In this document: piece by piece, positions 5,744 to 14,550 of the stretch
Layout of the letters: every line of letters starts with the position of its first letter
Position numbering within the stretch: the first letter of the stretch is position 1
The notes under the pieces: generated by a model
Database searches by the model: none
Told to the model about the DNA's origin: nothing
What the model saw: the letters and a program-made list of their open reading frames with translations, nothing else
Position numbers and translations under genes: made by a program
Source: Candidatus Heimdallarchaeota archaeon
GTDB lineage: Archaea; Asgardarchaeota; Heimdallarchaeia; Heimdallarchaeales; Heimdallarchaeaceae
Length of the DNA stretch: 32,000 bases
Direction of reading: 5' to 3'
Assembly (NCBI GenBank): GCA_030668875.1
Contig: DAOVER010000012.1
Span: forward strand, 30,001-62,000

Positions 5744-6169
5744 TTGGTGATATGGTTGAAAACGTTTAATGACACAGTAAGATTTGAAACAACTGGAGAA
5801 ATTGATATTATAGATTTAACTGAAAAATTCAGTAAATGTGTTCAAAATTCTGGGATTAGTAATGGAATATTGTCAGCTAATGTCATAGGATCAACAGGAG
5901 CACTAACAACAATAGAATACGAGCACCGTGTACTGGATGATTTTAGACAAATTCTACACAAACTAGTTCCAAAAGGTGCAGGATATAAACATGATATTAT
6001 CGATTCCAATGCTCATTCGCATTTACGAGCATCACTAATTGGTCCTAGTCTAACAATCTCAATTCATGAAGGAAGGATGCAATTAGGGACATGGCAACAA
6101 CCGGTTTTTGTGTGTTTAGATGTTAAATCTAGATCAAGAAAAGTAGCGATAACTATCATTGGTGAATGA
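5744..6169 (+). CDS. yjbQ: YjbQ/UPF0047 family protein
   Basis: GSTGALTTIEYE, YKHD, NAHSHLRASLIGPS and LGTWQ motifs. Confidence 0.93.
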   Translation: MVIWLKTFNDTVRFETTGEIDIIDLTEKFSKCVQNSGISNGILSANVIGSTGALTTIEYEHRVLDDFRQILHKLVPKGAGYKHDIIDSNAHSHLRASLIGPSLTISIHEGRMQLGTWQQPVFVCLDVKSRSRKVAITIIGE

Positions 6170-6405
6170 GATTGAGCTCAGAATATTATGTGATTCGATG
6201 CACAAAGAAAGAATGTGGAAAGTTTAGTTATTGCAAAGCTAATCAAAAAACCAAAATGTGTCCCTATTGTGAACATCGAATAAAGATTGAAAAGGCAAGT
6301 AAAACAGAAGTTAATTCCGTGGTCCATGCTAGGAAACTTGTTCAAGAGTTTAATAAAAAACTAGGAGAAATGACTGAACCTTGGTGGTATAAGTCTGATA
6401 CATGA
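6166..6405 (+). CDS. DUF1922-like archaeal Zn-ribbon protein
   Basis: YYVIRCTKKECGKF...KMCPYCEHRIKI. ATGA overlap with the yjbQ stop codon. Confidence 0.75.
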   Translation: MRLSSEYYVIRCTKKECGKFSYCKANQKTKMCPYCEHRIKIEKASKTEVNSVVHARKLVQEFNKKLGEMTEPWWYKSDT

Positions 6406-6490
6406 TATAAAAAAATCATCGGTAGAGTAATATATTATTAAAAAAGAAAGTGTCACAATATTTTTTTACCCTCATTCAAACATATTACTA

Positions 6491-8755
6491 ATGCCTTATT
6501 CAAAAGAAACTATAGAACTATTGAGTGATTCACCTTTCAAGCAATTTGTCTTAATGGAGCTAGAAAGAGAAAGATTATATCAATCATTCATAGAGATTGA
6601 TGAATTAGATGAAATTAGCAAAATATGGCTAGGTTTTTCGAAAATATGTGCTCAATCACTCGCAGATGTTTCATCAATAGCAAATTTGCTTTATGATCGT
6701 TACATCGATGAATGGACCAGAGATAAAACACAAATAGGGGCTGATGAAAAACGTAAAAAATCATTAACTGGAAAAATCGAAGATTTGCAAGAATTTCAGA
6801 TGGAATCAGCAATATTAATGATTGTTTATGCAGAGATAGTAAATGCTGGTATCTTTGGTACAGCCCCTTCTGATGATTATTGTATATCATTTATTGAGGG
6901 TTATCGTATTCTGAACAATATATCACAAACGTACTTTGATTCAAATCATCCAAGAGCTTCTAGTATAGAGGAGCTGATGTTAACAATTCTGCTCGTAAAT
7001 CAGAAACAACAGGTACTTAATCTTCTTGAAGAATCCCCCTATTTCAAAGATAAAACCACTACTTCTCAAGAAAAGGCATCTTATGAATTAACACAAGCAG
7101 AATTTGATGTTTCTTTCACAGCACAGTTTTTCCAGAAACTTCGAAATGATTGGTGGTGGAATGATGCTATTGCATCCTATTCTATTTACGAAAGAAGTTT
7201 AACACATCTACAAAATGCATTAAGCATTTACAAAAACCTTCCCGAGGATCCTGAATTAATAGTAAAGCAAATTGAACAAAATCTTATACTAACAAATCTT
7301 GCAATGAGGAATAAGGAACTCATTGAACATTATCTTAGACTTAGTTTTGAGGCAGCTAAAAACGACAATTTTATGGCTAGTGTAGAGTATCTCAATTTGG
7401 TACTAGGGTTAGGTAACGAAGCTCTAGAGGCTATTTCAGCAAATATTCACCAAGAAGCAACAAATCTCAAAATAAAAGAGAATATAATAAAGGAAGAAAC
7501 CATTCATACTTTTCTACAAGGCATATCACTTTTAGCAGCTAAGACATCGCAATTGAATTCTATGATTAGTACAGCTAAGAAAGAAGCGATACAAGATTTA
7601 ATAAAACAAATTGAAGAAATAGTTAACAGTCCAGATCTCAACATCAATAAGAATTACGTAAGTAGTTTACCATTTGTGTATCTAAATTATGTTCAAGAAT
7701 TTAAAATTGCATTGCTTGAAAATACACCATTTGAAGAAGCGATGAAAAGGGCTGAGCAAAATTTCACACGATTCTTTGAAAGGTTAGAATTTGCAACCAG
7801 TGATCTAGCATCTCAGTTAATTGAATTAGATAGGAAAGGCAAGAAGATTAAACAAGGAACAGTTTCTCAAATGATAGAGAATATTCAGAATATAAAACTG
7901 GCTACTTATTTTTTACCAAAAAGTGAAGATAAACTGTACATTGTAAAGGATATTGAATGTCTAGAATTCATTGCAAACTCAATCCAGTTAGAACAATTCT
8001 TGAGAGATAAAGAAACAAATGAAGTTCTTGATTTAATTTATCATGCGAAAGCTCATTATTATTCAACAAAAGCTTTAGAGATAACTCAATTAAGCAGTTT
8101 TACAAGAATTGATAGTGAATGGGTTGAAAAACGATATAGTCAAACATTTATTCAAGGTCAAGATATTGAATTACGTCTATTTGAACTAGCCAGACAGTAT
8201 CTCTTTCTAAATACAGTAATTGATGAGATTGCTAACAGTTACAAGGTTGCAAATACTGAAGATAAGACAATTTTAGACAATTATCAAGCAATTATAAAAC
8301 ATGCTTTCAACCAATTTGCAGTTTTTGATGCAATCAATATACGTATTGCTGATGATTGTAATGAATTATTAAAACACAAAAAGTTATTTGTTATAGAAAC
8401 TTCTGACATCAACTGGAAAGCTATAGAGGTAAAGAAACAGCTAACTGACACTCTGATAGATTTTCTTGAAGCTACAAAGAATGCTATTCTCGGTTATGGA
8501 GCCAGTAAGAATAAGGACACATACAAAGCTGCTTCATATTTCAATGATGCATCAAAATTTGCTAAGAATTCTAATGAGACAATGCAACCAATATCACATT
8601 ATGATGAAACATTTGCACAGTTGGCAAAAACTGCTTATGAGTATAGTATCTTGCTTAAGGAATTGGAGAGAAAAGCTAGAAATAGTGAAAAGTTACAGAA
8701 TCTTCCAATGGATCAGATATTTAACACACTGAAACAACTTACTTTTCTTTCTTGA
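6491..8755 (+). CDS. Large all-alpha hypothetical protein (754 aa), possibly TPR/solenoid-like
   Basis: Long ORF rich in E/L/K/A/I with amphipathic helical periodicity. No TM segment or catalytic motif recognised. Confidence 0.8.
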   Translation: MPYSKETIELLSDSPFKQFVLMELERERLYQSFIEIDELDEISKIWLGFSKICAQSLADVSSIANLLYDRYIDEWTRDKTQIGADEKRKKSLTGKIEDLQEFQMESAILMIVYAEIVNAGIFGTAPSDDYCISFIEGYRILNNISQTYFDSNHPRASSIEELMLTILLVNQKQQVLNLLEESPYFKDKTTTSQEKASYELTQAEFDVSFTAQFFQKLRNDWWWNDAIASYSIYERSLTHLQNALSIYKNLPEDPELIVKQIEQNLILTNLAMRNKELIEHYLRLSFEAAKNDNFMASVEYLNLVLGLGNEALEAISANIHQEATNLKIKENIIKEETIHTFLQGISLLAAKTSQLNSMISTAKKEAIQDLIKQIEEIVNSPDLNINKNYVSSLPFVYLNYVQEFKIALLENTPFEEAMKRAEQNFTRFFERLEFATSDLASQLIELDRKGKKIKQGTVSQMIENIQNIKLATYFLPKSEDKLYIVKDIECLEFIANSIQLEQFLRDKETNEVLDLIYHAKAHYYSTKALEITQLSSFTRIDSEWVEKRYSQTFIQGQDIELRLFELARQYLFLNTVIDEIANSYKVANTEDKTILDNYQAIIKHAFNQFAVFDAINIRIADDCNELLKHKKLFVIETSDINWKAIEVKKQLTDTLIDFLEATKNAILGYGASKNKDTYKAASYFNDASKFAKNSNETMQPISHYDETFAQLAKTAYEYSILLKELERKARNSEKLQNLPMDQIFNTLKQLTFLS

Positions 8756-8822: not shown

Positions 8823-9701
8823 ATGTTTAGTCCTCACAAGATGAGTAATCTGCCTATTTCTGACGATATAATTACTAAGTTCAATCAAGCTTATGATGTA
8901 ATTGATAAAATTAGGGGGAAACCAAATAGTGAGCTTGATCAGTATTTTGTAACAAGAGAAACATGTCTGAAGCGTGCATTGCTAGTAAACCCTGAAGATT
9001 ATGATAAAAAGAGAATAGTAATAATGGGAGATATGGACCTAGTTTCATTGGGGATAGGAATGTTTAGTAAACCAAGAGATCTTGCAGTACTTGATTTAGA
9101 CAAAAGAGTTTCAGAAATAGCTTTAAACATGAAGTTTAATCAAAAAATCCGTTCTGTTCGGTTTGTAAATTTAGACATAAGAATTCGAATGATTGCTATC
9201 TTGAGAAATCAGTTTGACTATATTTTCATTGAACCACCTTTGACAAAGGAGGGACTGGAAGTAGGTCTTTCAAGGGCTTTGCAATGTGCAAAAAAAGAAG
9301 AACCCTCAAAAATTTTCCTTTCTTTTGACGCTCCTAACAAGGAAGAACTAGTAGAGAAATACACAGAAAAAATGAATTTAACAGTCGAAAGTGTAAAAAA
9401 ATCATTCAATGAATATAAGTTTAATACACCGTTAGGGAACAAAGAATCCGATTTATTCATTATAAAAGTGAATACAAACTCCAAAGAATCTGTCTCAGAA
9501 CATTACTATGGTCCTTTATACTTCCGAGAGAGTATGCAAGTTCCTTATCCTTATGAATGCAGTTGTGGAAAAATCCACACTATTGGCAAAGGTGGGGAAT
9601 ATAGCTCAGTAGAAGATTTAAAGAACAAAGGATGTCCAGTATGTGGTCATGCAGAAGACTTTCGGTATGCATCAAATATAATGCTAGATGAAACGCAATA
9701 G
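8823..9701 (+). CDS. BpsA/DUF43-like (branched-chain polyamine synthase family) Rossmann-fold protein with C-terminal Zn ribbon
   Basis: RGKPNSELDQYFVTRET...IVIMGDMDLVS...AVLDLDKR...FDYIFIEPP matches the BpsA pattern (RP..EFDQ..VT.ET, GDDDL, DID.R, DPP). CSC...CPVC at the C-terminus. Confidence 0.78.
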   Translation: MFSPHKMSNLPISDDIITKFNQAYDVIDKIRGKPNSELDQYFVTRETCLKRALLVNPEDYDKKRIVIMGDMDLVSLGIGMFSKPRDLAVLDLDKRVSEIALNMKFNQKIRSVRFVNLDIRIRMIAILRNQFDYIFIEPPLTKEGLEVGLSRALQCAKKEEPSKIFLSFDAPNKEELVEKYTEKMNLTVESVKKSFNEYKFNTPLGNKESDLFIIKVNTNSKESVSEHYYGPLYFRESMQVPYPYECSCGKIHTIGKGGEYSSVEDLKNKGCPVCGHAEDFRYASNIMLDETQ

Positions 9702-9726
9702 AAGTATCATGATAACAGGTGATTTC

Positions 9727-10077
9727 ATGTCAGAACCATCAAAGAGAAAAACAATTTGTGCAATTTGCGAGAAAGACATTACCCTTTCAAGTGATATACT
9801 TCTCAATGGATGTCCAAACTGTGGATCTTTCAAGTTTAAAACTTTCAAAGAAGGAAGTATTAAATTTCAAGATGAGAAGGAATTAGATTTAATAGTTGAA
9901 AAGGAAGTAGAACATACAGGTATTCAAGAAGGATTAGAATCAGTTCGGTTAACTAGTGATGGGGTTTTTGAGGTTGATTTGGAGAAACTTTTGACAGAAT
10001 CAGGTGAGGAAAAACCGATTATCAGCAGAAATAAGGACGGTTCTTATTTCATCAAATTCACTACAAAAGAAGAGTAA
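9727..10077 (+). CDS. oapC: OapC/ArvC (DUF2072) Zn-ribbon protein
   Basis: CAIC...LLNGCPNCGSFKF and ESVRLTSDGVFEVDLEKLL...DGSYFI. Start moved from 9688 to ATG 9727 to avoid overlap with the upstream gene. Confidence 0.82.
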   Translation: MSEPSKRKTICAICEKDITLSSDILLNGCPNCGSFKFKTFKEGSIKFQDEKELDLIVEKEVEHTGIQEGLESVRLTSDGVFEVDLEKLLTESGEEKPIISRNKDGSYFIKFTTKEE

Positions 10078-10153
10078 AATTAAAAAATCAAAACCTCTCA
10101 CTTTTCAAAAAATTTTAAATCTCATCAATTAAAGAAAGGAAGAGGTATCTGTC

Positions 10154-11062
10154 TTGGTAATTAAAGAACAACTAGCAAAAGAGCAAAGAATCGCAAGTGG
10201 AGTTAAAGAAATACTAGAATTTAGAGGATTTGAAATAACTAAAATAAAAGAAGACGACGACTTTATAGACGTTTATGCTTCAAAGATTGGAGAAGATGAT
10301 GAGAAAAGGATAGCATTTGCAAGGTTTCCTAAAAACCCTCAAGTCGGAGTAAAAACAATTAGAGTTCTAGGTAAACTTCAAGCAGAGGAGGATTTTGATG
10401 AAGCATTACTAATTGCAGAAACCCCTTTGACTCATTATGCAAAGAAAGAATCTGTGAAACTTGGGATAGAAATTATCAGTAGTACAAACCCATTGTTCAA
10501 TATCTTTGATCATGATCTAGTTCCCCATCATAACAAGTTATCCAATAAGGAAATTCGTTCTTTCTTAATAAATTATCAAATCGAAAAACATCAAATTCCG
10601 AAAATTTTAGAGACAGATCCTGCCGTCAAAGCAATTCAAGCAAAACCAGGTGATGTTCTTAGAATAGTCAGAAATCCTGTAATGGGAGAACAAGGAGCTT
10701 ACTATAGAGTTGTTATAAAATCAACTTCTAGGCTTCGTCTTACAGATTCAGTTTTGAAGAAAAAGAAGACTGCAACAAAGAAGAAGACAACAACTAAAAA
10801 AGTCAAAGCAACACCTGATAAGAAAGCCAAAGCAACACCTGATAAGAAAGCCAAAACAACACCTGATAAGAAAGCCAAAACAACACCTGATAAGAAAGCC
10901 AAAGCAACACCTGATAAGAAAGCCAAAGCAACACCTGATAAGAAAGCTAAAGCAACACCTGAAAAGAAACCTGCAGAAAAGAAGACAGAAGCAAAGAAAA
11001 AAACTGAAAAGAAAGCTAAAGCAAAACCAACGAAAAAGAAACCTGCAGAAAAGAAGAAATAA
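10154..11062 (+). CDS. rpo5: RNA polymerase subunit Rpo5/RPB5 with eukaryote-type N-terminal jaw domain and Lys-rich repeat tail
   Basis: C-domain FNIFDHDLVPHH...QIPKILETDPAVKAIQAKPGDVLRIVR...YYRVV. N-domain RGF...FPKNPQVGVKTIR. TTG start after GAGGT. Confidence 0.92.
   Translation: MVIKEQLAKEQRIASGVKEILEFRGFEITKIKEDDDFIDVYASKIGEDDEKRIAFARFPKNPQVGVKTIRVLGKLQAEEDFDEALLIAETPLTHYAKKESVKLGIEIISSTNPLFNIFDHDLVPHHNKLSNKEIRSFLINYQIEKHQIPKILETDPAVKAIQAKPGDVLRIVRNPVMGEQGAYYRVVIKSTSRLRLTDSVLKKKKTATKKKTTTKKVKATPDKKAKATPDKKAKTTPDKKAKTTPDKKAKATPDKKAKATPDKKAKATPEKKPAEKKTEAKKKTEKKAKAKPTKKKPAEKKK
10805..10972 (+). repeat. Coding tandem repeat, 7 x 24 nt (AAAGCAACACCTGATAAGAAAGCC), encoding K[AT]TPDKKA
   Basis: Units start at 10805, 10829, 10853, 10877, 10901, 10925 and 10949 (last one degenerate). 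The first six units differ from consensus by at most one base and there are no spacers. Confidence 0.97.
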
Positions 11063-11076
11063 GTTAGGGGTTAATT

Positions 11077-12024
11077 ATGATAACATTCCTTTCAGGAGGA
11101 ACAGGAACCCCAAAGTTAATACAAGGGTTTAGAACAATTTTAAGAGACGAAAAACTATCTATTATAGTTAATACTGCAGATGATATTTGGCTCTCTGGAA
11201 TCTATATCTCACCTGATGTAGATACGCTACTCTACTTGTTCAGTGGTTTGTTAGATGAAAATAAATTTTGGGGGATTAAAGACGACACTTTCAACACTTT
11301 GAAGATGTTACAGTTACTTGGTTTTCCATCTTGGTTTAATTTAGGTGATCAGGACCTAGCCGTTAATCTTTTTAGAACGCGGATGATTCAAAAAGGGCAC
11401 TCTCAAGAGGATATCGTAAAGACTCTTTCAAATCTTCTAAACATTAGCTCAACAATTATTCCTTGTACAAAAAATCATATAGAATGTCGCATTATCACTG
11501 AAAAGAAAGGCGATATTCATTTTCAAGAATTCTGGGTTAAATACAAAGCAAAAGTAAACATTAAACAAGTTTACATAAAAAATTTAGAAAATGTTGAAAT
11601 CTCAGAAGCAGTTAGAAGTACAATCAAAAAATCTGAATTAATTATAATTGGTCCAAGTAATCCAGTAACAAGTATTGGCCCAATTATTCGAGTTAAAGAG
11701 ATTGCAGATTTATTGAAAGAACATAAAAACAAGATTATTGCAGTAAGCCCTCTTATTGGGAATAAACCCGTCAGTGGTCCCACTGAAATGCTCATGAAAG
11801 CAGAAGGAATGGAAACAACACCCATGGGAATCGCAGAATTCTACAAAGATTTCTGTTCGTGTTTAATAATCGACAATATGGATTCTAATATGATTAATCA
11901 GATACAAAGTAAAACTGGGCTAGAAGTTCTTTCAGAAGAAATTTTGTTTAGAGATACTCAAGATGCTTCTAGGCTAGCTTGCTCTATTCTGAAATGGAGA
12001 GACCTTTATGACAAATATGTTTGA
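11077..12024 (+). CDS. cofD: 2-phospho-L-lactate transferase (F420-0 synthesis)
   Basis: LSGGTGTPK, IVNTADD, SPDVDT, WFNLGDQDLA, HFQEFWV and IGPSNPVTSIGPI motifs. Confidence 0.95.
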   Translation: MITFLSGGTGTPKLIQGFRTILRDEKLSIIVNTADDIWLSGIYISPDVDTLLYLFSGLLDENKFWGIKDDTFNTLKMLQLLGFPSWFNLGDQDLAVNLFRTRMIQKGHSQEDIVKTLSNLLNISSTIIPCTKNHIECRIITEKKGDIHFQEFWVKYKAKVNIKQVYIKNLENVEISEAVRSTIKKSELIIIGPSNPVTSIGPIIRVKEIADLLKEHKNKIIAVSPLIGNKPVSGPTEMLMKAEGMETTPMGIAEFYKDFCSCLIIDNMDSNMINQIQSKTGLEVLSEEILFRDTQDASRLACSILKWRDLYDKYV

Positions 12025-12790
12025 AATTTATCCGCCTATTGTTCAATCTGCTATAGCTGGTGTTGCAGACAGGAAATATTGTCAACAGATGCTTGATTTA
12101 GGAGCTGGGATGGTCACCTTAGGTGGATTTCCAGCTGACAGGTTAAATTACAAAGCATCTTTGAAGATGAAAGAGAGGGGGAGAACGGAATGCATTCCGC
12201 CGACAAACGAGAAAGAGTTATCCGAGTGGTTTAATCAAAATCTTTTGCTTTTCAAGAGGAATAAGCGCCAAAGAACAGCTATTAATCTAAGAATTGTAAC
12301 TGTTGATCAGATTACTGAAAAATGGTTAGAAGCTCTGGATGGGAAAGTAGATTTCTTAGAACTAAATGTCCATTGTAGACAAAAAGAAGTCCTATCAATA
12401 GGAGCAGGGGAAGGTTTACTTAGGGATCTAAAGAAATTAGATCAGTTACTAGCAAGCATCTCAAAGTTCTTACAAAAAACGAAATTAAGCATAAAAATTC
12501 GAGGATGTTCCGTTGGAGATAAGGATTCTTTGATTGAAATTTTAGAGAAACAACAAGTTAACTATATTCATATCGATTCTATGTTGAAAGGAGAGAATGT
12601 TGCAGATATTCTGTTACTAAAGTCCTATTGTAATTCTACAGATATTCCAATTATCGGTAATAATTCAGTAAGATGTATAGAAGATGTTAAAAAGATGTTA
12701 AAAGTAGGAGCTATTGCTGTATCTATAGCAAGACCACTTATCAGACATCCAAATTTCATAGCTGTATTAATACATCAATTAGAAGGGTAA
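12008..12790 (+). CDS. DUS-like FMN TIM-barrel protein (MJ0144-like archaeal family)
   Basis: SAIAGVAD...VTLGG...KMKERGRTE...ELNVHCRQ...LSIKIR...IHID...IIGNNSV...AVSIAR. Overlaps the end of cofD by 17 nt. Confidence 0.82.
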   Translation: MTNMFEIYPPIVQSAIAGVADRKYCQQMLDLGAGMVTLGGFPADRLNYKASLKMKERGRTECIPPTNEKELSEWFNQNLLLFKRNKRQRTAINLRIVTVDQITEKWLEALDGKVDFLELNVHCRQKEVLSIGAGEGLLRDLKKLDQLLASISKFLQKTKLSIKIRGCSVGDKDSLIEILEKQQVNYIHIDSMLKGENVADILLLKSYCNSTDIPIIGNNSVRCIEDVKKMLKVGAIAVSIARPLIRHPNFIAVLIHQLEG

Positions 12791-12793
12791 ACA

Positions 12794-13405
12794 ATGACAA
12801 TTGGAATAGTAATCCCTTTTAGGGGGACAGATTTAGACAAAAGCCGTCTTCGAGAAGATATGGATGAAATGAGTGTCAAATATATTCTTAATACTATGAC
12901 TCAGCAAGTAATTTCAGAAATTATGAAACTTGATAAGAAGGTAAATTTGTACGTTCTCTCTAAGAACGAAGTCTCTTTTGATGGTAGATACCAAATAGCA
13001 AAAGATCAAGGTAAGAATCTAAGTGATTCTCTTCAAAAGTTTACAGCAAAAATGAACGAAAATATCATTATGATTATTATGGCAGATTTACCTTTAATCA
13101 AAAATTCTCACATCAAGAGTATTTTGGAGACTGTTGAACAAGAAAAAACAGTTATCATAGCACCAGCGAAAGATAATGGGACAAGTATCTTGTGCTTTAA
13201 TCGAAATATATCTTTTCCTTTTTTCTATGGGGTAAAATCAGCAGAAAGATTAGCAAATTATCTCACTGAAACCAGTGTCAATCATCAAGTTCTAGGATAT
13301 GATTCTTGTTATCAAGATATAGACACATTTAAAGATTTAATAAGCTTAAATCGAAACAACTCTCTACCTGAATGGTTAAAAAATTATTTTAAGGAAGTGC
13401 TTTAA
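12794..13405 (+). CDS. cofC: 2-phospho-L-lactate/PEP guanylyltransferase
   Basis: VIPFR...KSRL, IMADLPLI, IAPAKDNGTS, FFYG..SA, DIDTFKDL motifs. Clustered with cofD. Confidence 0.85.
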   Translation: MTIGIVIPFRGTDLDKSRLREDMDEMSVKYILNTMTQQVISEIMKLDKKVNLYVLSKNEVSFDGRYQIAKDQGKNLSDSLQKFTAKMNENIIMIIMADLPLIKNSHIKSILETVEQEKTVIIAPAKDNGTSILCFNRNISFPFFYGVKSAERLANYLTETSVNHQVLGYDSCYQDIDTFKDLISLNRNNSLPEWLKNYFKEVL

Positions 13406-14550
13406 TGAAAGAAAAAATAGAAAGAATTCAAAACGTTTTACGTGAACAAGAAATTGATGGGTGGGCTGTTTTTTGTCATCATTCTTATGATATACATCTT
13501 AAATATCTACTAGAAAATTGGTTTTCTGGTCCTACACTAGTTCTCATAACTCAGGAAGGAAAACCAAAAGTCATTGCCTCCAGAATGGAAGCAATGATGA
13601 TTAATTCGGAAATCTATGATGTTATTGAATACAAAAAAGGGTCCGAATTGCAAGAATTGTTAGAAAATCAATTCAATTCAATTCCAAAAGAATCAAAGAT
13701 AGCACTAAATTTTGTTGAAGAAGATGAAGTTTTCAAGAAGCTAAATTATGATATTCTTACAAGTGGTTCATTTAAAGCTTTGACTTCCTTAAACAAAGAA
13801 CTTGAATATGTTTCAGCAAAAAATCTTATTTTTGATATAAGAGCAGTTAAAACAAAAAAAGAGATAGAAAACCATCAAGAAGCAGCTAGATTAGCTGAAG
13901 AACTTATGGAAGAAGTTGTTGAACCAAGCATTAAACCAGGCATGAGGGAAAAGGAAATTAATGCACTTATAGAATATGAATGTAATAAACGAGGTGGTGT
14001 CGCTTTTGAAGCTATTGTAGCTTCAGGACCAAATGCAGCTATTCCACATCACACAGCAGGAGAGAAGAAAATAGAAGAAAATGCTGTTTTGCTCATAGAT
14101 TATGGTGTAGCATACAATCTTGCAAATTCAGACATAACACACACCTACTGGATAGGTAAAAATCCTCCAGAAAAGATATTACAAGCATATGAGGCAGTTG
14201 ATAAAGCAAAAGAAGCTGCTTTTAATAAAATAAAAGCGGGAGTTTTATCTTCAGATGTTGAAGATGTAGTTCGAGATAAGTTTGAAGAATTTGGATATGA
14301 TCATGAAAAACTCTTCATTCATTCTACAGGACATTCGTTAGGTCTTGAAACACATGACATCGGGATAGGAATATCAAAAGCTTCTCCTGACAGACCAAGT
14401 AAACAGCTTCTAGAAAACTCTGTTATAACAGTTGAACCTGGGTTATACTTTCCAGGAGAATTTGGAATAAGATTAGAAGATGATGTAGTTGTAAGGAAGG
14501 ATGGGATTACTCGTTTATCATTTACCCCATCAGAAATGAAATGCCTTTGA
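13405..14550 (+). CDS. pepQ: Xaa-Pro peptidase, family M24B
   Basis: IPHH, IDYG...SDITHT, HSLGLETHD, EPGLY and IRLEDD metal-ligand motifs. TAATG coupling to cofC. Confidence 0.88.
   Translation: MKEKIERIQNVLREQEIDGWAVFCHHSYDIHLKYLLENWFSGPTLVLITQEGKPKVIASRMEAMMINSEIYDVIEYKKGSELQELLENQFNSIPKESKIALNFVEEDEVFKKLNYDILTSGSFKALTSLNKELEYVSAKNLIFDIRAVKTKKEIENHQEAARLAEELMEEVVEPSIKPGMREKEINALIEYECNKRGGVAFEAIVASGPNAAIPHHTAGEKKIEENAVLLIDYGVAYNLANSDITHTYWIGKNPPEKILQAYEAVDKAKEAAFNKIKAGVLSSDVEDVVRDKFEEFGYDHEKLFIHSTGHSLGLETHDIGIGISKASPDRPSKQLLENSVITVEPGLYFPGEFGIRLEDDVVVRKDGITRLSFTPSEMKCL

Follow-up and report, generated by a model that had tools for sequence, protein, structure and literature searches.

Eukaryotic RPB5 (RPABC1; POLR2E, yeast ABC27) is a subunit common to RNA polymerases I, II and III, in which an N-terminal jaw domain (Rpb5_N, PF03871) is followed by a C-terminal assembly domain (Rpb5_C, PF01191), as in PDB entries 1dzf, 5xog_E and 7eu0_E. 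The N-terminal domain was stated in 2012 to be absent from every archaeal species, with Rpo13 taking its place in Sulfolobales (PMC3479171), and its absence from archaeal Rpo5, or RpoH, was repeated in 2014 (PMC3906176) and 2018 (PMC6690254). Where the RPB5 jaw and Rpo13 lie and what they do is described in PMC3479171 and PMC6690254, and transcription papers have argued from the archaeal absence that eukaryotes evolved a hold of their own on downstream DNA (PMC3479171, PMC6690254, PMC3906176). We analyzed a stretch of 32,000 nucleotides from the genome of a Candidatus Heimdallarchaeota archaeon (contig DAOVER010000012.1 of assembly GCA_030668875.1), hereafter the window, which carries an rpo5/rpoH gene at 10154..11062. 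The gene lies on the + strand, as do all features given below; according to the open reading frame list and its translation, it encodes 302 amino acids (aa) plus a stop codon and begins with TTG. In our assessment, held with good confidence, this gene encodes the sole Rpo5/RpoH of this Heimdallarchaeaceae polymerase, in a two-domain form that is orthologous in architecture to eukaryotic RPB5. The subunit belongs to a known family, and its two-domain form contradicts the transcription literature.

Two domains were delimited in the core of the protein. The N-terminal domain, aa 1-114 (10154..10495), has a predicted PD-(D/E)XK fold and is a homologue of the RPB5 jaw according to phmmer, profile searches, hhalign, AlphaFold2 (AF2) and VIA-align; the Rpb5_C assembly domain occupies aa 115-190 (10496..10723; PF01191, E 8.9e-23, 80.3 bits). 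The initial annotation, made from the sequence alone, had noted that archaeal Rpo5 is normally short and contains only the C-terminal domain, and that about 110 extra aa precede it here. Both points stand: the solved RpoH chains of 77-84 aa match only residues 109-189 of our query, and 114 residues lie before Rpb5_C, that is, the noted span 10154-10483 plus 4 codons. The two strings quoted in support of an RPB5 jaw, EFRGFEI (aa 22-28) and AFARFPKNPQVGVKTIR...THYAKKE (aa 54-99), are present as written; the human RPB5 strings set beside them are correct, and the gapless alignment is real (phmmer, E 2.3e-5).

When aa 1-114 alone were compared by phmmer with 177,635 PDB sequences, RPB5 was the sole family below E 0.05, with that same best E of 2.3e-5. 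Residues 47-104 align without any gap to residues 65-122 of human and bovine RPB5, and by our own count about 20 of the 58 positions are identical. With the whole protein as query, one alignment to human RPB5 65-207 runs through the N-domain, the hinge and the C-domain, interrupted by just one gap of 4 residues (E 8e-18). A profile of 18 relatives retrieved from the PDB only RPB5 chains at E <0.05 (best 7.6e-8), and its match to plant NRPB5 covers positions 2-98. The N-domain profile had 46 matches in a set of 1.84 billion representative proteins: the two-domain proteins of archaea, the RPB5 of eukaryotes, starting at E 6.5e-9, and no more than two proteins of Mrr type, at about 3e-4. The comparison of alignments by hhalign gave a probability of 98.6% for archaeal against eukaryotic N-domains (E 4.8e-16, score 89, 102 columns); against Mrr sequences the score was 63 for the archaeal domains and 40, over 42 columns, for the eukaryotic ones. 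Likewise, a hidden Markov model (HMM) of 19 full-length eukaryotic N-domains gave the N-domain of the window 33.7 bits over model positions 5-113, and an HMM of 5 Mrr sequences gave it 22.9 bits. Judged from these profiles, the archaeal N-domain is intermediate between Mrr nucleases and the eukaryotic jaw, and nearer to the jaw.

The fold of the N-domain was then predicted. Two AF2 models were computed, one of the N-domain alone and one of both domains, from alignments that held archaeal sequences only, so that no eukaryotic RPB5 entered them. The model of aa 1-114 reached a mean predicted local distance difference test score (pLDDT) of 90.4 and a predicted template modelling score (pTM) of 0.81. 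Its succession of helix, three strands, helix, strand, helix and strand corresponds to the core of PD-(D/E)XK nucleases. In the VIA-align search the top 21 matches were all eukaryotic RPB5 chains (Z 12.3-11.2, root-mean-square deviation (rmsd) 2.1-2.7 Å, 106-111 of the 114 residues). The best superposition, with Z 12.3, placed 111 of 114 residues at 2.5 Å, and the RPB5 residues covered by these matches, 2-142, represent the whole jaw. With the full-length model, the top 35 Foldseek matches were RPB5, with E-values from 3e-12. In sequence, profile and predicted structure, no family comes closer to the N-domain than the RPB5 jaw; phmmer and profile searches, profile-profile comparison, the whole-database search and the predicted fold agree on its homology to the jaw, as the initial annotation had supposed.

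Several observations weigh against this identification. In the Pfam scan Rpb5_N reached only 16.6 bits (E 0.013), over aa 42-71 and below its gathering score of 27, and Mrr_cat and NA-iREase1 outscored Rpb5_N in all 18 relatives scanned. The lead of RPB5 in structure is small, with EndoMS/NucS at Z 11.2 and the Mrr-like AF1548 at Z 10.6 coming next in VIA-align, and for the N-domain alone Foldseek placed EndoMS first by E-value, by a narrow margin. The relative placement of the domains in the two-domain model is not confident (pTM 0.54), and this model and whole RPB5 give no overall superposition (TM 0.46, rmsd about 10 Å). The archaeal jaw, of about 114 aa against about 140, is shorter by about 25 residues, and the minor-groove proline of yeast RPB5 (P118) corresponds to His94 here. 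The comparison of archaeal N-domains with Mrr is weakened by a Mrr set of 5 sequences only; the Mrr_cat search of close relatives found only three stand-alone members, hence the small set. The tree considered below, built on 119 columns, leaves many forks open, with unsettled bootstrap values. Finally, rpoB (PF00562) was not found anywhere in the assembly, and this marker is therefore missing from the metagenome-assembled genome.

The Pfam ranking deserves a closer look. Mrr_cat (PF04471) exceeds its cut-off in the window protein (25.4 bits against 21, aa 15-109). NA-iREase1 (PF22722) remains below its own (22.7 bits against 27), with relatives reaching up to E 6.9e-10; Rpb5_N is matched by 15 of the 18 relatives (best E 3e-5). 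The initial annotation had named, as arguments against itself, a better score for a generic Mrr_cat domain and a lack of relationship to RPB5-N. The first was found in form, since Mrr_cat leads Rpb5_N by 25.4 to 16.6 bits; the second is not borne out by the tests on the whole domain. The Pfam model of Rpb5_N is only 89 positions long, and its match extends no further than residue 71 of the query. Past this point lies the best-conserved block (residues 72-104, aligned to human 90-122), which includes the TPSAK motif. Moreover, the fold of the RPB5 jaw has itself been assigned to the PD-(D/E)XK, or restriction-endonuclease-like, type (PMC3424549). A Mrr-like and an RPB5-like identity are therefore not mutually exclusive, and because the jaw has this fold and the Rpb5_N match stops before the best-conserved block, the ranking is not decisive.

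It could be argued that Asgard archaea joined a generic Mrr-type domain to RpoH on their own, that the eukaryotic jaw has a separate origin, and that the likeness does not go beyond the superfamily. The lead of Mrr_cat and NA-iREase1 over Rpb5_N in the 18 relatives and the near-ties of EndoMS and AF1548 in structure fit such a convergent fusion, as does the public precomputed annotation, which assigns PF04471 or PF22722, and not PF03871, to the archaeal proteins. However, the position and order of the fusion are identical in both groups, with the N-domain directly before Rpb5_C, and one alignment with a single 4-residue gap connects both domains and the hinge to human RPB5. Both groups carry a proline at the position of the nuclease lysine together with PxVG(V/I)K and T-x-x-AK blocks. 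The profile score between archaeal and eukaryotic domains exceeds that between archaeal and Mrr domains (89 against 63), eukaryotic RPB5 ranks above Mrr proteins in the whole-database search, and the tree separates archaeal and eukaryotic N-domains from Mrr at 97/97. We consider convergent fusion improbable, and retain the homology of the archaeal N-domain and the RPB5 jaw.

Inspection of the nuclease motif points in the same direction. Asp39 (10268..10270) was aligned by hhalign to the first catalytic Asp of Mrr-type nucleases and is invariant in the family. At Arg57-Phe58-Pro59 (10322..10330), the same alignment puts Arg57 opposite the (E/Q) and Pro59 opposite the Lys of the nuclease motif. 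Eukaryotic RPB5 has F-F-P at this site, and the change from Lys to Pro is thus common to both groups. Because Arg57 and Pro59 stand in place of (E/Q)xK, the active site of the N-domain appears to be lost, and on these residues the domain is most likely catalytically dead. Its surroundings are not those of a nuclease either: the N-domain is fused to Rpb5_C in more than 200 genomes and stands neither alone nor with a DNA-recognition module, and no NACHT domain was found in the window protein by the Pfam scan.

The distribution of the N-domain was determined in 399 Asgard genomes, assigned to 33 families that are coded here f1 to f33. A narrow profile of close relatives matched 85 of these 399 species genomes, and frames of about 185-250 aa around Rpb5_C were present in many further Asgard families; when 30 such frames were cut out, all but one contained the N-domain. 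With a broad profile the N-domain was found in 210 of the 399 genomes and in about 24 of the 33 families, which supplies the survey across Asgard classes suggested at the outset. Matches occur in all families of the class to which the window belongs (f1, in 28 of 29 genomes, and f2-f7) and also in f8, f12-f17, f22, f24-f26 and f28-f33. NCBI labels anchor these matches in Heimdallarchaeaceae (f1), Kariarchaeaceae, Hodarchaeales, Helarchaeota (f15, identical protein) and Thorarchaeota (f31). In the same broad-profile search, the N-domain was not found in f9, f10, f11, f18, f21, f23 and f27, nor in any of the 135 genomes of the largest family, f20, and f19 gave one weak match in 14 genomes. In the families without the N-domain the listed Rpb5_C frames measure 81-125 aa; only f23 departs from this, with a 246-aa frame whose N-terminal part differs and is not matched by the N-domain profile. 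These data show that the N-domain is not particular to this lineage and is ordinary within Asgard. Outside Asgard its spread rests on one NCBI label: GCA_042577465.1, labelled Thermoproteota archaeon, encodes at 6001-6549 a 182-aa two-domain Rpo5 that scores 54 bits with the Asgard profile.

The two-domain subunit is variable in its details. In f3 and f4, which belong to the window's own order, Rpo5 reaches 430-500 aa and has two or three tandem N-domains before Rpb5_C. Many Thorarchaeota (f31) genomes contain a neighboring pair of two-domain rpo5 genes, whose starts are about 650 nucleotides (nt) apart, and in f22 and f25 about 35-40 inserted residues separate the final YYR(V/I)V strand from the rest of Rpb5_C. 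Repeated N-domain segments also occur in two eukaryote-like RPB5 entries of 456 and 235 aa, three of them in the 456-aa one, as a result of either real duplication or assembly artefact. In one genome from the genus of the window the N-domain has no match, and Rpb5_C is represented only by a short, dissimilar RpoH in a 114-aa frame; 6% contamination is reported for this genome, and the contig may stem from another archaeon.

The relationships of the N-domains were evaluated with a tree of 57 N-domains and 5 Mrr sequences (119 columns), rooted on Mrr. The Mrr sequences form one clan (97/97) and the eukaryotes another (97/92). The archaeal sequences form no clan, such a grouping appearing in 3% of the bootstrap trees, and the eukaryotes fall inside an unresolved archaeal comb. 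The tree is consistent with an archaeal origin of the domain and names no sister group. Both the wide spread in Asgard and the position of the eukaryotes as one clan within the archaeal set agree with the claim that the two-domain subunit is older than eukaryotes. As a path, an inactivated Mrr-like nuclease domain would have been fused to RpoH in archaea, before eukaryotes arose; eukaryotes would then have inherited the two-domain subunit and added an insertion of about 20-25 residues. The RPB5 jaw probably arose in archaea.

The opposite direction, in which a two-domain gene of eukaryotic origin was later passed to Asgard and displaced the short RpoH, was also considered. The N-domain is not found in f20 (0 of 135 genomes), f9-f11, f21 and f27, which such a transfer would accommodate, and the tree leaves unresolved which archaeal group lies nearest to the eukaryotes. 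On the other hand, the N-domain is present in about 24 of the 33 coded Asgard families with a divergence that tracks the families, and also in the Thermoproteota-labelled genome. The archaeal domains are devoid of the eukaryotic insertion and closer to Mrr (63 against 40), as expected of the older state. The eukaryotes form one clan in the tree and the archaeal sequences do not (3% of bootstrap trees), and G+C is even over the window. The tree, the intermediate profile scores and the missing insertion thus make a transfer from eukaryotes unlikely, and an independent fusion likewise; of a transfer in particular we think it very improbable.

For the archaeal origin that we prefer, a fuller scenario appears reasonably likely, although we hold it with less assurance than the identification of the subunit. 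The jaw would have been made in archaea from a dead Mrr-type nuclease and RpoH, and would represent the common state in the Asgard ancestor or, given the Thermoproteota-labelled copy, perhaps an earlier one; the short RpoH of Loki-like families would be a secondary loss. Asgard polymerases would then possess a eukaryote-style lower jaw guiding downstream DNA, to which Heimdallarchaeaceae would have added a histone-H1-like tail.

The residues that contact DNA in the eukaryotic jaw are kept in part. In yeast Rpb5, P86, T117, P118 and S119 were reported to touch downstream DNA (PMC6690254). Profile positions 55-97 correspond to residues 79-121 of the yeast chain, and as the two ranges are equally long we read them as gapless; Pro62 then equals yeast Pro86, Thr93 equals Thr117, His94 equals Pro118 and Tyr95 equals Ser119. 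Pro62 belongs to the NPQVGV block (10334..10351), and its yeast counterpart is one of two prolines proposed as DNA contacts (PMC6690254). The stretch T93-H94-Y95-A96-K97 (10430..10444) is the counterpart of the TPSAK downstream-DNA contact motif of eukaryotes (yeast T117-P118-S119), of which it keeps Thr, Ala and Lys. In Thorarchaeota and several other Asgard families, TP(S/A)AK is kept.

By analogy with solved archaeal and eukaryotic polymerases, in all of which the C-domain anchors the subunit on Rpo1, the C-domain would do the same here. The N-domain would line the path of downstream DNA through the NPQVGV and THYAK loops and would present a surface to initiation factors; it would not cut DNA, and the lysine-rich tail described below would contribute non-specific affinity for DNA. 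From the eukaryotic analogy we infer that the N-domain would contact downstream DNA and act as its guard rail.

A homologue of the jaw could also have a different job in archaea, for example in docking chromatin proteins or factors of the TFB/TFE type, or as a sensor, with no guiding of downstream DNA. Such a function would be compatible with the histidine at the minor-groove position in this family and with the two or three N-domain copies or the two tandem genes of some families, which fit an adaptor better than a single fixed DNA contact; the eukaryotic jaw, moreover, binds TFIIB, RAP30 and other factors (PMC13257274). Yet, provided that the C-domain binds Rpo1 in the manner of all solved structures, so short a hinge keeps the N-domain close to the downstream cleft, and the contact loops retain Pro62, Thr93 and Ala-Lys. 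Adaptor and DNA-guiding roles are compatible with each other. A function that excludes DNA guiding seems to us improbable, and the guard-rail role is favored.

The remainder of the protein was compared in the same way. The match to Rpb5_C covers the full model (positions 1-73) at aa 115-187, with 80.3 bits against a cut-off of 23.5, and the C-domain matches Pyrococcus and Thermococcus Rpo5 at E 4e-16. It is the universal archaeal/eukaryotic assembly domain that is common to all archaeal RpoH. Outside the RPB5-like core, translation and family alignment delimit a tail rich in Lys, Ala, Thr and Pro (aa 196-302; 10739..11059). Within it, Tandem Repeats Finder detected a 24-nt tandem repeat of 7.3 copies with 96% matches (10795..10969), which encodes KATPDKKA units. 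The short-read contigs of four runs all break within this repeat, so that its copy number rests on the original assembly. Tails of Heimdallarchaeaceae relatives are basic or acidic and of widely varying length; the lysine-rich type is confined to part of the family, and another genus, g5, has acidic tails.

The integrity of the gene was checked at several levels. Rpb5_C (PF01191) gave a single match in the whole assembly (99 contigs, 92% complete) in a whole-genome profile search, which indicates that this is the polymerase subunit gene of the genome and not a spare paralogue. The family alignment shows that close relatives start at the same position, with ATG or TTG (MATKEQ, MVSKEQ), and the TTG start at 10154 is therefore supported. 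By reading the sequence, we noted a purine-rich GGAAGAGG 8 nt upstream of the start (10138-10145) and an A/T-rich stretch 35-45 nt upstream; a promoter/terminator scan found nothing above shuffles, and its sigma-70 model is not meaningful for an archaeon. The junction of the two domains (10495/10496) is bridged by independent contigs of two metagenome runs, at 9600-10833 and 9600-10728. The DNA is present in four marine-sediment metagenome runs of one study, which is possibly the source sample, and this presence is accordingly not independent support. No RNA data set was among the sequencing runs listed as containing the DNA, a result that bears on expression in neither direction. In more than 200 genomes the N- and C-domains share one frame without stops. 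An assembly chimera or a gene-call artefact was excluded by the starts of the relatives, the bridging contigs and the fused frame in these genomes, and a foreign island by the even G+C over the window.

In the window, rpo5 adjoins no polymerase gene (8823-14550); its neighbors are a BpsA_C-like gene, an OapC-like zinc-ribbon gene (9688-10077), cofD, a Dus-like gene and cofC. The two-domain rpo5 of the Thermoproteota-labelled genome is likewise unlinked from polymerase genes. Further upstream in the window, a 754-aa open frame at 6491-8755 matches no Pfam family at E 0.001 or better.

Public records give little hint of the N-domain. They label these proteins "subunit H" or "RpoH/Rpb5 C-terminal domain-containing", and precomputed Pfam assigns Mrr_cat to the N-terminal part. 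Some public gene calls begin inside or after the N-domain, as in 104-aa Thorarchaeota entries and 179-182-aa Heimdall entries, so that the domain is hidden in some database entries. There is thus an annotation gap in which the domain is either called Mrr_cat or clipped off. A literature search of 8.4 million full texts, which did not cover subscription papers, found no report of the N-domain in archaeal Rpo5. A 2026 paper that models Helarchaeota and Thorarchaeota Rpo5 does not describe it, and the supplements of Eme et al. 2023 hold no Rpb5, RpoH or IPR005571 entry. The presence of a two-domain Rpo5 in most Asgard families moves the origin of a polymerase module into archaea. In sequence, this Rpo5 also represents an intermediate between the eukaryotic jaw and Mrr nucleases. 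For the debate about which archaea gave rise to eukaryotes, it adds a character of the informational machinery that can be scored over Asgard lineages.

How the subunit of the window relates to the described systems can now be specified. With eukaryotic RPB5 it shares the order of jaw and assembly domain, a PD-(D/E)XK N-domain that appears to have lost its active site, the blocks F/R-F-P, PxVG(V/I)KxI(R/K) and T-x-x-AK, and the best structural match, with Z 12.3 over the whole N-domain. It differs from RPB5 in having no helical insertion after helix 1, where hhalign gaps the archaeal profile over about 12-19 columns, in the His for the minor-groove Pro, in a score below the Pfam Rpb5_N cut-off, in a 107-aa lysine-rich tail that RPB5 does not have, and in belonging to an organism with a single polymerase. 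Canonical archaeal Rpo5/RpoH (77-84 aa; PDB 8cro_H, 4qiw_H, 2waq_H) has the same C-domain (E 4e-16 to 1e-8, TM about 0.77), also as a single copy, but no N-terminal domain.

Mrr_cat (PF04471; AF1548, PDB 1y88) and NA-iREase1 (PF22722) have in common with the N-domain the fold, the motif order and the first Asp. They are distinguished from it by (E/Q)xK in place of R-x-P and by association with DNA-recognition or NACHT modules in place of fusion to a polymerase subunit, and both profile score and database rank put the window domain nearer to RPB5-N. Rpo13 of Sulfolobales offers an analogy only: the expected site, next to downstream DNA and flanked by Rpo5 and the Rpo1 jaw (PMC3479171), and the likely role would be the same, whereas Rpo13 itself is small, helical and unrelated, and has a gene of its own.

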